From assembly GCA_934096815.1 (NCBI GenBank), contig CAKOMY010000004.1:7436-71435 (forward strand): 64,000 nucleotides of DNA. The letters run 5' to 3'. The notes beneath the pieces were generated by a model, which had not been told where the DNA came from, did not search any database, and was given only the letters and a program-made list of their open reading frames with translations. Origin of the DNA: an uncultured Bacilli bacterium (lineage in GTDB: Bacteria > Bacillota_I > Bacilli_A > RF39 > UBA660). Position 1 is the first letter of the stretch. Every line of letters starts with the position of its first letter. The position numbers and the translations under genes are program-made. Positions 43,090-43,814 of the stretch are shown here, piece by piece.

Positions 43090-43216
43090 ATTTCTCCTTT
43101 TTATGCGGCTTTGTGAATATTTTATCGAACAAATGCCGGTTTTTGCACAAAAAACACAAATAACTATATAGTCGTAGTAGATATAGTTATTTGTTATTCT
43201 AGGTGCTTGTTTTTAG

Positions 43217-43389
43217 TCCGCCCTAGCCTACTAAATCTTGCGATTTTTAGTGCGGCTAGGCGGACATGTAACCTAAACCCCACCTTTTTAAAAAAGGTGC
43301 CTGTGTGCCACAACCCCAAAACTTTTACTACTTTTTTGTAAAAAAGTAGTGCAAAAAACTTTTAGAGGTCCTACAAGCGGACGGCTTGC
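43217..43389. repeat. cluster of stable hairpins (candidate phage replication origin / packaging signal)
   Basis: GTCCGCCCTAGCC...GGCTAGGCGGAC (43217..43265), CACCTTTTTAAAAAAGGTG (43281..43299), ACTACTTTTTTGTAAAAAAGTAGT (43327..43350) and CAAGCGGACGGCTTG (43374..43388). The segment is much more GC-rich than its surroundings and non-coding. Confidence 0.55.
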
Positions 43390-43538
43390 AAAAAGCAAAA
43401 AAAATGATTAAAATCCTTTTTCTTGCTTTTTTAGACACCATTATTGAGTGGAAATGTTTATCAAGTAACTTTCGCGACATAACGAGGGCCCCTACCCCAT
43501 TATTTCACGTTTACTTGACAAACACCTATCTATGCACT

Positions 43539-43814
43539 CTATTTCCAGAATGGTATATCTACAGTAGGTATTAAATTTAATAAATAAACTATTGTATTCC
43601 ATACATGCTTAATGTTATAAAGTAAAACCATTACTCCAGCACATGCAATCCAAAATTTTAGATCAATGAATAGATCAATAATACCTAATGATCCTTTTAT
43701 GTTCGTAAAAATAAAATCTAAAGTAGTATTGAATTTTTCTGGAAGACTTGGTAAAGAAAAAGGAATAAGATTAATAACACCAGTAATTAAACTGAATAAG
43801 CCTTTTAAGATCAT
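43539..43814 (-). CDS. phage small membrane protein (pVI-like minor coat candidate)
   Basis: 91 aa, two to three hydrophobic helices. Overlaps the stop of the upstream gene (ATGA). Confidence 0.4.
   Translation of the reverse strand: MILKGLFSLITGVINLIPFSLPSLPEKFNTTLDFIFTNIKGSLGIIDLFIDLKFWIACAGVMVLLYNIKHVWNTIVYLLNLIPTVDIPFWK

Follow-up and report, generated by a model that had tools for sequence, protein, structure and literature searches.

A candidate replication-origin region with a plasmid-type nick hairpin and a permuted ssoA-like hairpin in an inovirus prophage of an uncultured gut Bacilli bacterium

The hairpin-rich gap between the last structural gene and the replication gene (rep) of a 4.9-kb inovirus prophage is most probably the replication-origin region of that phage, and for this explanation as a whole we estimate a probability of roughly 0.7. 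The prophage lies on the minus strand of the window, by which we mean the whole 64-kb stretch of DNA that was analysed, and the minus strand of the window corresponds to the viral (+) strand. Read along that strand, the gap contains an ssoA-like structure, hereafter hairpin A, which is probably a lagging-strand (single-strand) origin or sso, and then a nick hairpin that we take as the leading-strand (double-strand) origin or dso, directly followed by rep. This reading draws on the motifs themselves with their strand and order, on the covariation of the nick hairpin and of hairpin A, on the family to which Rep belongs and on the distribution of hairpin A among other elements. An earlier note on this DNA had seen here the rolling-circle origin region of an inovirus adjoining a Rep gene, and that core idea holds.

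The prophage spans approximately 42458-47337 and is bounded by a dif site at its rep-side end (42430-42457, minus strand, of which ACTTCCTATAATATATATTATGTTAACC is the reverse complement) and by a hybrid dif copy at the other end (47310-47337). When we compared ACTTCCTATAATATATATTATGTTAACC with the B. subtilis dif sequence printed in PMC3025954, 25 of 28 positions were identical, and an 18-bp direct repeat occurs at the two prophage ends (42441-42458 and 47321-47338). The phage carries a Zot-like ATPase gene (45278-45952; phrog_197, E 1.4e-7) and a ribbon-helix-helix repressor gene (47071-47265), and a XerC/D-like recombinase gene is found near the prophage (40183-41073). The gap itself, 43090-43538 (about 449-451 nt), is flanked on one side by the stop codon (43539) of the last structural or morphogenesis gene, which encodes a membrane-like protein of 91 aa (43539-43814, minus strand; present in the ORF list and called in all close relatives), and on the other side by the ATG of rep (43089).

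The rep gene (42493-43089, minus strand) encodes a 198-aa rolling-circle initiator which, judged by its sequence, is a member of Pfam PF01719 (Rep_2/Rep_OBD; E 1.9e-15, 57.5 bits against a cut-off of 24.6), the family of pMV158 and pE194, and of neither Rep_trans nor Rep_1, the families that the earlier note had proposed for a comparison of nick sites. The HUH metal-binding motif H62-x-H64 and the tyrosine Y101 (in RYLxH) were invariant in 17 homologues, and in the alignment with RepB (chains 8amt and 3dkx) they fall on its HUH motif KKAHYHV and its LYLTH tyrosine (Y99). RepB also gave the best three matches in a profile search of solved structures, with an E value of 0.03 that reflects a weak alignment in which the motifs nevertheless coincide. 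We found 286 Rep homologues in gut metagenomes. Identity to plasmid Reps is only about 30%. Neither the single Rep sequence nor the Rep alignment retrieved relatives from IMG/VR, the single sequence had no match in the species genomes, and Rep did not match Phage_CRI.

Since Rep belongs to PF01719, the relevant nick consensus is TACTACG/AC, and in the 64 kb of the window this 9-mer (TACTACGAC) has a single exact copy (43171-43179, minus strand). The copy lies inside the loop of a hairpin with a perfect 14-bp stem and an 11-nt loop, CTACTACGACT (43156-43194, minus strand; -9.1 kcal/mol, z -7.8), which is located 90 nt upstream of rep and on the same strand, and which is the equivalent of IR-I of pMV158. 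The predicted nick would fall between 43173 (G) and 43172 (A) of the minus strand. In an alignment of 18 lineages, 94% of the cells of the stem are paired and 10 of the 14 pairs show a compensatory change, whereas none of 500 shuffles matched this and slid alignments reached at most 52% pairing. Relatives whose Reps are 51-89% identical, and one rodent-gut inovirus genome at 33%, have altered stems around a retained loop. We compared ten GenBank gut inoviruses with Reps that are 30-38% identical, of which PQ006129 alone places TACTACGAC in a hairpin; the other nine presumably use different nick sequences. A search of IMG/VR with the nick-hairpin pattern gave no match.

The nick hairpin is followed by two direct repeats, TTATTTGTG and TTTTTTGTG, and then by CA (43144-43163, minus strand), the first repeat overlapping the right arm of the hairpin. 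The arrangement TT(A/T)TTTGTG-(T/C)(A/T)TTTTGTG-CA after the nick hairpin was kept in nearly all of the 18 aligned lineages; a third copy, CATTTGTTC (43127-43135), which lies 27 nt further on, and an inverted copy, CACAAAG (43109-43115), are peculiar to the lineage of the window. The nick 9-mer, its position in the loop of a hairpin and the adjoining repeats are the features that define the pMV158 dso, in which the proximal repeats were footprinted by RepB (PMC1851628), and the position of those repeats agrees with that of the TTTGTG repeats in the window. By analogy, the latter are candidate Rep-binding repeats. Rep would bind them beside the inverted repeat at 43156-43194, which would extrude as a hairpin, and Tyr101 would cut TACTACG/AC in the loop. 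The 3'-OH would then be extended towards rep and further around the circle or into a tandem copy, and Rep would close the displaced strand at the end of the round.

The likeness to the pE194/pMV158 module is not limited to a PF01719 Rep and an identical nick 9-mer in a hairpin loop. Direct repeats adjoin the 3' arm of the hairpin in both cases and all elements are on one strand; the arrangement of the nick site recurs in pE194, where the region reads GGGGGG-TACTACGAC-CTCCCCCC. The order sso, dso, rep is that of pE194, and the distances are comparable (RSB 643, nick 884 and rep 1259 in pE194; 60, 362 and 452 of the gap in the phage). However, the element in the window is a filamentous phage integrated at dif and not a plasmid, its repeats are of the TTTGTG type rather than GTGCCPuA or the 11-bp distal repeats, it lacks a copG gene between dso and rep, and its sso is permuted. 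We did not identify an antisense RNA II, and no counterpart of the three 11-bp distal repeats of pMV158 was found in the window.

As a whole, the gap is richer in GC than its AT-rich surroundings (37% compared with 20-32% per kilobase over the window), as the earlier note had stated, and when folded as single-stranded DNA, a check that the note had proposed, both strands are far more stable than shuffled sequences. The minus strand reached -89.1 kcal/mol, compared with -46.0 +/- 4.4 for the shuffles (z -9.9; none of 100 shuffles was equal), and the plus strand -75.4 kcal/mol (z -9.1). The single hairpins have z-scores of -3.1 to -7.8, and these scores rule out chance palindromes of AT-rich DNA as their source. 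All four inverted repeats of the earlier note, as well as its CG-rich block, are present. Its list was nonetheless incomplete, since three of the most stable hairpins (43156-43194, about 43390-43431 and 43446-43539) had been omitted, and the four that it offered as evidence of an origin turned out to be the least conserved, two of them within a lineage-specific insertion. In relatives beyond the phage's own lineage, with Reps 51-89% identical, sequence conservation is limited to 43140-43198.

Hairpin A (43446-43539, minus strand; -15.6 kcal/mol, z -5.4), at whose foot the stop codon of the 91-aa gene is located, is the structure that we consider probably to be the lagging-strand origin, on account of its fold, its RSB motif with a pairing partner and its covariation. 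Its outer arm GTCAAGTAA is followed by the RSB partner ACGTGAAATAA (43500-43510), a tip, GGGGTAGGGGCC, between partner and RSB, and the RSB-like motif TATGTCGCGAAA (43470-43481), all on the minus strand. A -35-like box, TTGATA (43459-43464, minus strand), lies 4 nt past the RSB inside the outer arm TTACTTGAT, and a -10-like box, AATAATGG (43438-43445, minus strand), directly follows the base of the hairpin. The CG-rich block of the earlier note, CGCGACATAACGAGGGCCCCTACCCC (43473-43498), is thus not a separate feature; it is the RSB and tip of hairpin A, its inner part, as viewed on the plus strand. The RSB-like pattern TATGYCGNGAAA was found once in 64 kb, where 0.02 occurrences are expected; the RSB reads GTTATGTCGCGAAAG in the window and TTTATGCCGCGAAAG in close relatives. 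In the RSB helix, ACGTG(A/G)AATAA pairs with TTATG(T/C)CGCG, leaving an A-G mismatch and an A/AAAG loop.

Comparison of hairpin A across nine lineages showed 88.8% pairing with 9 compensatory pairs, and in 32 distinct sequences all 13 outer pairs showed compensatory changes while the inner RSB:partner helix was paired in 100% of cases, with G-C to A-T exchanges at two positions. The -10 box is kept in the lineage of the window and in eight others (L013, L016, L025, L028, L034, L047, L056 and L059), with a family consensus of (A/T)ATAATG(G/T)TGT located 13-16 nt after TTGAYA. Between the two boxes the distance is short or variable (13-16 nt when counted to ATAAT, 15-18 nt when counted to TAATGK), and their function as a promoter is putative.

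Three plasmids with ssoA (palA) origins, pT181, pE194 and pC194, each have TTTATGCCGAGAAAA paired to TTGGAATAAA; pUB110 had no clear RSB. The phage RSB, TTATG(C/T)CGCGAAAG, corresponds to TTTATGCCGAGAAAA of the plasmids and its partner CGTGGAATAA to TTGGAATAAA, and both types share the A-G mismatch in the helix, an A-rich internal loop, a TTG-containing stem that starts 4 nt past the RSB and a location on the nicked strand. A TAGCG-like tip is frequent in relatives of the phage: tips read TAGCGA in one relative (L055), GCGTAGCGG in another (L074) and GCGAAGCG in two more (L075 and L079). TAGCG itself occurs only in some, and the tip of the window reads TAGGGG and not CS-6 (TAGCGT/A). There are nevertheless clear differences, as the phage hairpin measures about 70-95 nt, compared with about 160 in the plasmids, the copy in the window is without CS-6, and the order of the parts is circularly permuted. 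In the plasmids the order is RSB, 5' arm, loop, 3' arm and partner, and in the phage it is 3' arm, partner, tip, RSB and 5' arm; the RSB end of hairpin A is thus the closed one, and its stem end is open. The Bacillus plasmid NZ_CP036354 has the canonical ssoA order with arm sequences that are nearly those of the phage hairpin.

The RSB has been described in reviews as the conserved part of ssos primed by RNA polymerase, and ssos as functioning in one orientation only and folding into a promoter-like structure; the RSB:partner duplex is the element of plasmid ssoA origins that host RNA polymerase recognises. Hairpin A would fold on the displaced single strand and rebuild this duplex between the RSB and its GGAATAA partner. 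As a result of the permutation, one meets the RSB, the -35 box (TTGATA) and finally the -10 box (ATAATG) on moving outward along the 3' arm. The -10 box thus lies at the fork where the base of the hairpin is open, and the known priming geometry of ssoA is not simply transferable to this topology. We suggest that the RSB duplex would be capped by a small loop and that the promoter-like arm would open outward, so that priming would start outside the hairpin and not into a CS-6 loop. RNA polymerase would presumably copy the primer from the 5' flank of hairpin A, which is the end of the 91-aa gene, and DNA polymerase would extend it into the minus strand.

A covariance model of hairpin A scored 77.1 bits on the window (43456-43523), 62.8 and 58.6 bits on two gut Microviridae, and 37-69 bits on 32 contigs of IMG/VR. 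Hairpin A adjoins four families of replication proteins (Rep_OBD, Rep_trans, REP_ORF2-G2P and microvirus Rep), and its presence both beside these and in Microviridae indicates that it is bound to no particular Rep or capsid. Some of the IMG/VR matches lie near a terminase, ParA or integrase instead of genes of ssDNA phages. In all 12 cases that could be oriented the hairpin is on the coding (viral) strand, and in the window it is on the strand of TACTACGAC and of all phage genes, as the ssos of pE194 and pT181 are likewise on the nicked strand. About half of the examined Rep relatives (L013, L016, L019, L022 and L056 among them) had no copy detectable with the model and carry a different long hairpin instead. 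On canonical ssoA plasmids the model scored at most 14.7 bits (E 0.12 or worse) and did not match the ssoA hairpins, so that the link to ssoA is carried by the two short motifs and their pairing. That hairpin A represents a previously undescribed class of sso, a circularly permuted ssoA shared across phages and other mobile elements, is a proposal that we put forward tentatively and at slightly less than even odds.

To our knowledge, the second-strand origins of ssDNA phages that infect Gram-positive bacteria are almost uncharacterised. For a family of filamentous phages whose hosts are uncultured low-GC gut bacteria, the arrangement described here predicts both replication origins to the base, and it is evidence for an entire sso-dso-rep module that is common to phage and pE194/pMV158-type plasmids. 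With a length of about 70 nt, the permuted RSB hairpin is a compact and structured element of DNA that covaries strongly and recurs in Microviridae as well as in Inoviridae that use different initiators; as a candidate sso it could be used as a marker to find such phages and to orient their viral strand. Plasmid ssos have been reported to limit host range, and for that reason the hairpin may also aid host assignment. If the permuted class is real, it would be common to filamentous phages with at least three unrelated initiators, to gut Microviridae and to other mobile elements, and would amount to a common host-directed module for starting the second strand that moves between ssDNA phages and plasmids of Firmicutes-like bacteria. 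A possible use would be the building of single-stranded DNA vectors for gut Bacilli.

The remaining hairpins of the gap, B to F, are possibly accessory: B and C travel with hairpin A, and E and F form a lineage-specific insertion. Hairpin B (about 43390-43431, minus strand; -11.2 kcal/mol, z -4.2), with 20-nt arms made of A-tracts and T-tracts around AAGCAA/TTGCTT, always comes after hairpin A, and an equivalent hairpin of other sequence was found in six relatives (L025, L016, L056, L013, L028 and L030); it may belong to the lagging-strand origin, or serve as a terminator or packaging signal. Hairpin C (CAAGC-CGTCC-GCTTG, CAAGCGGACGGCTTG; 43374-43388, minus strand; -3.0 kcal/mol, z -3.3), the fourth repeat of the earlier note, is represented at its site in L025, L016 and L056 by another small GC hairpin (GCC-TTAC-GGC) directly after hairpin B. 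Hairpin D, the third repeat of the note, is the palindrome ACTACTTTTTTACAAAAAAGTAGT (ACTACTTTTTTGTAAAAAAGTAGT; 43327-43350, minus strand; -6.6 kcal/mol, z -4.9), which shares 88% identity over 35 nt with the equivalent site of L025; L016 has a similar palindrome immediately ahead of the nick hairpin.

Hairpins E and F are contained in a GC-rich insertion of about 130 nt that is restricted to the lineage of the window, and BLAST of this insertion against phages and plasmids returned no match. Hairpin E, the second repeat of the note, is the palindrome CACCTTTTTTAAAAAGGTG (CACCTTTTTAAAAAAGGTG; 43281-43299, minus strand; -5.6 kcal/mol, z -3.1) and is missing from relatives with shorter gaps. Hairpin F, which is GC-rich and 50 nt long (43216-43265, minus strand; -15.5 kcal/mol, z -5.7), was the first repeat of the note, described there with a 24-nt loop. 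Its arms do pair, GTCCGCCCTAGCC (43216-43228) with GGCTAGGCGGAC (43254-43265), although with one bulge, and the supposed loop, which is 25 nt long, is itself paired. We found hairpin F only in contigs with Reps that are 97-100% identical, where its inner stem shows one compensatory change from T-A to C-G, and its pattern had no match in IMG/VR.

The same structures could instead be signals of transcription. Hairpin A with TTGATA/ATAATG would be a double-strand promoter that drives rep or a short RNA, hairpins B and C a terminator or attenuator that ends the structural operon, and hairpins D and E operators for the ribbon-helix-helix repressor, whose gene is indeed present in the phage. The two boxes would serve equally well as an ordinary double-strand promoter pointing at rep, a direction that is kept in at least eight lineages. 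The distance between the repeats and the ribosome-binding site of rep is only 20-35 nt in most relatives, too short for a promoter to fit downstream of the nick hairpin, and transcription of rep must therefore start further upstream. Hairpin B is flanked by A-runs and T-runs as a bidirectional terminator would be. However, a plain promoter requires neither a covarying inverted copy of its own -35 region nor an RSB:partner helix paired without exception, and hairpin A also occurs in Microviridae and beside unrelated genes. The terminator scan called nothing, hairpin B included, and promoter-like sites are not enriched (16 found compared with 14 expected). We therefore consider it unlikely, yet far from negligible, that transcription signals are the whole explanation; they are, moreover, compatible with an origin, as the boxes could act both in duplex DNA and in folded single strands.

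The intergenic region of Ff phages (f1/M13) contains a packaging hairpin, the minus-strand origin hairpins recognised by RNA polymerase and the plus-strand origin with the gpII nick, followed by gene II. The gap of the window resembles it in that it lies between the last morphogenesis gene and the replication gene with a run of hairpins on the viral strand, in that the nick site adjoins the replication gene, and in that the minus strand is probably primed by RNA polymerase on a promoter-like fold. The initiators differ, however, gpII/Phage_CRI in Ff and Rep_2 in the window, the nick motif of the window is of plasmid type, and sequence similarity between the two regions is absent. On this model, hairpin A, hairpin B or the GC-rich hairpin F could be a packaging signal for the assembly proteins, like hairpin [A] of Ff phages. 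Such a role would fit the location, just past the last morphogenesis gene and ahead of the origin as in Ff phages, and hairpin F is the most stable of the simple hairpins and shows its compensatory change within its lineage. Nevertheless, we regard a packaging role as rather improbable: the occurrence of hairpin A beside four Rep families and in Microviridae, which package their DNA differently, argues against a capsid-specific function, and hairpins F and E are confined to one lineage, all other relatives lacking them even though they keep homologous structural genes. Packaging hairpins follow no sequence criterion, and in our comparison with the Ff region only hairpins B and F were counted as candidates.

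A small protein or small RNA encoded here, in place of signals at the DNA level, is very improbable; the possibility was raised by the earlier note and by the presence in the mechanical ORF list of candidates of 50 aa (43328-43480, minus strand), 41 aa (43194-43319, minus strand) and 62 aa (43386-43574, plus strand). No gene was called in the gap in 16 related loci; Rfam gave only chance-level matches in the region, both for the whole window at the gathering threshold and for 42000-44000 at E values up to 5; and no tRNA or tmRNA gene was found. Sequence conservation is confined to the segment around the nick hairpin, the length of the gap varies from 182 to 449 nt among relatives, and the 50-aa ORF begins at an ATG within the RSB, a motif that is conserved in non-coding plasmid origins.

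Least credible of all is that the hairpins fold into a single-stranded attachment site used in XerCD integration, like that of the CTX phage: the prophage does sit at dif with a XerC/D-like gene nearby, but its dif-like sequences mark the two ends of the prophage and lie between rep and the repressor gene, which puts attP outside the gap, the circular or tandem junction of the relative L056 has GTTAACATAATATATATTAT just after rep, and reading 43090-43538 by eye showed no dif-like sequence. The position of the att site outside the hairpin gap and the host, an uncultured low-GC Bacilli/Tenericutes-like gut bacterium, distinguish the prophage from the dif-integrating filamentous phages of the CTX, VGJ, Cf1c and XacF1 types, with which it shares a dif and a hybrid dif flanking the prophage at the replication terminus, as well as relatives that occur in tandem arrays and adjoin other inoviruses. 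The prophage is present here as a single copy, so excision or a tandem copy would be needed for rolling-circle release. Relatives of the phage are active elements, present as circular contigs of 4.0-4.5 kb, and the tandem prophages among them have two nick hairpins 4.6 kb apart.

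The non-coding gap at 43090-43538, flanked by a 91-aa gene (43539-43814, minus strand) and by the 198-aa rep gene (42493-43089, minus strand), has a GC content of 37%, compared with 20-32% per kilobase across the window. When we folded its minus strand as single-stranded DNA, the energy was -89.1 kcal/mol versus -46.0 +/- 4.4 kcal/mol in dinucleotide-preserving shuffles (z -9.9), and the plus strand gave a z of -9.1 against such shuffles; the folding run proposed in the earlier note thus shows the gap to be far more structured than shuffled sequence. The four inverted repeats and the CG-rich block listed in that note were all recovered in place from the sequence and with a repeat finder, which also returned three stable hairpins absent from its list: a perfect 14-bp inverted repeat (43156-43194), an A/T hairpin with 20-nt arms (43390-43431) and a long imperfect hairpin with the CG-rich block inside it (43446-43539). 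No gene was called inside the gap in 16 related loci, and Rfam and tRNA searches of the region gave no match.

The 198-aa protein belongs to PF01719 (Rep_2/Rep_OBD, E 1.9e-15), the family that includes RepB of pMV158 and RepF of pE194, and not to Rep_trans or Rep_1. Its residues H62-x-H64 and Y101 are invariant among 17 homologues. In alignments with RepB structures, which gave the three best, though weak, matches among solved structures, they fall on the HUH motif and the region of the catalytic Tyr. The defining feature of the pMV158 family is 5'-TACTACG/AC-3', a nick 9-mer exposed in the loop of the inverted repeat IR-I, whose right arm is accompanied by proximal direct repeats (PMC1851628). 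An exact copy of this 9-mer is found only once in the 64 kb, on the minus strand (43171-43179), so that the nick-site consensus present is that of Rep's own family. The perfect 14-bp hairpin (43156-43194) displays it in a loop of 11 nt, on the strand of rep and 90 nt upstream of its ATG; the pE194 counterpart reads GGGGGG-TACTACGAC-CTCCCCCC, followed by GTCCATT repeats. When we aligned 18 lineages, with Rep proteins 51-89% identical and, for the rodent inovirus PQ006129, 33% identical, the loop (T)ACT(A/G)CGAC(TAT) was retained across the 18 while the stem sequences varied, with 94% of cells paired and changes on both sides in 10 of the 14 pairs (none of 500 shuffles matched this, and slid controls were at most 52% paired). 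Immediately 3' of the nick hairpin, TT(A/T)TTTGTG-(T/C)(A/T)TTTTGTG-CA is conserved, and these TTTGTG-type repeats are predicted to be bound by Rep. In BLAST searches, the 60-nt block at 43140-43198 was the only part of the gap conserved beyond the phage's own lineage. Within the pMV158/pE194 kind, the leading-strand origin (dso) is well defined and ordinary, and its novelty lies in the phage setting.

In one related locus (L029, 6830-6900), the nick hairpin keeps its right half and the TTTGTG repeats are present, but other sequence (CTGTAGCGACACTATAAGTTGAGCTAGGACTATAATGTAATTTGTG) stands in place of the loop and left arm, which may represent a decayed origin. In many lineages, G/T/A-rich motifs of GTAG type (AGTAGTAGGGG, GTAGAGTAGAGTAG, GGGTAGAATAGGGG) also precede the nick hairpin at a short distance (43227-43240 in the window, with equivalents in the related loci L026, L031, L032, L048 and L056); GTAGTAG is the complement of the nick-loop CTACTAC.

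At the far end of the gap, after the stop codon of the last structural gene, lies hairpin A (43446-43539, minus strand), which reads on that strand GTCAAGTAA - A - CGTGAAATAA - tip - TTATGTCGCG - AAAG - TTACTTGAT. The motif TATGYCGNGAAA occurs once in the window, versus 0.02 copies expected. The plasmids pT181, pE194 and pC194 contain TTTATGCCGAGAAAA, which is the RSB sequence, the conserved element of single-strand origins primed by RNA polymerase. In these plasmids a hairpin of about 160 nt has TTGGAATAAA at its 3' base as the pairing partner of RSB, and the duplex of the two includes a single A-G mismatch and an internal loop rich in A. Hairpin A and the plasmid origin class ssoA have both partners, the mismatch and the loop in common, but in hairpin A the order of the partners is reversed, so that a small tip closes the RSB duplex and the stem next to it has an open end. 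Judged by sequence, hairpin A is thus a circular permutation of the ssoA arrangement, while the Bacillus plasmid NZ_CP036354 has arms of almost identical sequence, arranged in the canonical order. The window's hairpin A differs further from ssoA in having no CS-6 motif. Phage and plasmid forms alike have a TTG-containing, -35-like hexamer 4 nt after the RSB (TTGATA in the window, TTGACA in relatives), and in the phage family (A/T)ATAATG(G/T)TGT follows 13-16 nt later, just past the hairpin base, which leaves a short spacing between the -35- and -10-like boxes. We propose a putative priming direction for hairpin A; its boxes could just as well act as a promoter of rep in duplex DNA.

Across nine lineages, 88.8% of hairpin A cells are paired compared with at most 50% in slid controls, and nine pairs show compensatory change. 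A covariance model built from these sequences (R1) detected two gut Microviridae outside the training set, PQ006446 (62.8 bits) and MK496725 (58.6 bits), both on the coding strand. It did not detect the canonical ssoAs of the plasmids tested. All 32 IMG/VR contigs selected by a motif pattern scored 37-69 bits; among these 32 distinct sequences the inner helix was paired in all and compensatory change was found in 13/13 outer pairs, in an alignment that was fitted to R1 and hence favours the structure, although the outer stem is an independent test because the selecting pattern constrained the inner helix only. The element adjoins four replication-protein families (Rep_OBD, Rep_trans, REP_ORF2-G2P and microvirus Rep), occurs also near Zot and secretin genes, and, by our tally, lay on the coding (viral) strand in each of the 12 cases that could be oriented. 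About half of the Rep relatives carry another long hairpin in its place. The order of lagging-strand origin (sso), dso and rep in the phage gap, and the distances between them, match pE194. Given its independence of initiator and capsid, its strand specificity and its RSB, hairpin A is best explained as a probable lagging-strand origin, that is, a second-strand origin dependent on the host. We regard the permuted RSB hairpin as a novel variation on ssoA; of all the results, its occurrence in both Inoviridae and Microviridae is of greatest interest.

The element is sometimes found near terminase, ParA or integrase genes. In three IMG/VR contigs with the permuted RSB hairpin (L092, 6804-6875; L100, 12182-12253; L103, 2380-2451), a large terminase, a ParA ATPase or a tyrosine integrase is encoded nearby, so the hairpin is not confined to recognisable single-stranded DNA phages. 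Small plasmids of Streptococcus suis (L068, 1480-1527) and S. thermophilus (L069, 1482-1527) have TTTTATGTCGCGAAAGTTTCTTGAT in a non-coding region, 96% identical to the window over 23 nt, in a shorter hairpin without the GGAATAA partner that R1 scored at only 14.7 bits.

Hairpins B (43391-43431) and C (43374-43388) follow hairpin A. Three related loci (L025, L016 and L056) have a B-type hairpin and a small GC hairpin of different sequence at matching places, while in three others (L013, L028 and L030) a hairpin is clear at the B position only. Hairpin D (43327-43350) is common to L025 and L016, and in relatives such as L025 the nick hairpin comes almost directly after it. Hairpins E (43281-43299) and F (43216-43265) are part of one GC-rich insertion of about 130 nt found only in the window's phage lineage; hairpin F and the insertion had no BLAST match in phage and plasmid collections. 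Two compensatory double changes occur within the lineage, one in hairpin A and one in hairpin F. Hairpins B-F may serve as terminator, operator, packaging signal or extra origin. The earlier note's interpretation is partly supported: the gap is the origin region of a rolling-circle filamentous phage beside rep, but Rep is of another family than the Rep_trans and Rep_1 that the note proposed for comparison, and the decisive elements are the nick hairpin and hairpin A instead of the cited hairpins C-F.

Between 43539 and about 47000, genes on the minus strand encode, among other products, a Zot-like assembly ATPase (phrog_197, E 1.4e-7) and a 73-aa coat-like membrane protein, together with a divergent ribbon-helix-helix repressor. 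The closest annotated relatives of the 198-aa protein are in complete circular 'Inovirus' genomes of 4-8 kb from pig, rodent and lemur faeces, and the hosts of the relatives are uncultured gut 'Bacilli/Tenericutes' metagenome-assembled genomes. An 18-bp direct repeat (42441-42458 and 47321-47338) bounds the prophage. Its left copy sits within a 28-bp site (42430-42457) that agrees with Bacillus subtilis dif at 25/28 positions, and the right end (47310-47337) is a hybrid dif site; these set the extent of the prophage at about 42458-47337 and imply XerCD-type integration, with a full dif restored at the left junction. An attachment site within the gap was rejected, the dif-like sites standing at the prophage ends. 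Cumulative GC skew peaks at about 43 kb, where gene strand bias also switches (about 39000-44000), which indicates that the window spans the replication terminus. Together with a XerC/D-like recombinase gene (40183-41073), the skew peak and dif-site ends identify the element as a 4.9-kb filamentous prophage integrated at dif in the terminus. The related prophages L013 and L016 have the same flanking genes as those of the window, L011 and L019 (a ZIP transporter, and a 258-aa HTH gene with mnmA) but lie in the opposite orientation relative to them; since the HTH gene (47682-48458 in the window) stays with the flank, it is not a phage gene. On the plus strand, 38034-38208 contains a 6S RNA gene that scores above the gathering threshold (RF00013, 50.3 bits), with a ThiF-like gene downstream.

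In 2.9 million IMG/VR contigs, the Rep family had no match and the nick-hairpin pattern had none either, yet gut metagenome assemblies yielded 286 Rep homologues; on these searches, the inovirus family appears to be missing from that viral catalogue. With circular contigs of 4.0-4.5 kb and tandem prophages among the relatives, the family looks active. Three contigs with the same nick hairpin (L026, L049 and L051; 3963, 4143 and 4475 nt) have 55-nt terminal overlaps, hence are circular assemblies, and are free genomes of family members. Two identical nick hairpins in L030 (at 6858 and 11425, 4.57 kb apart) and in L033 (at 6942 and 11603, 4.66 kb) indicate tandem copies. The dif locus of relatives also holds arrays, in which a Rep_OBD inovirus lies beside a Rep_trans inovirus (L022, 7001-14233) or beside a Rep_trans-encoding element (L059, 3756-6597).
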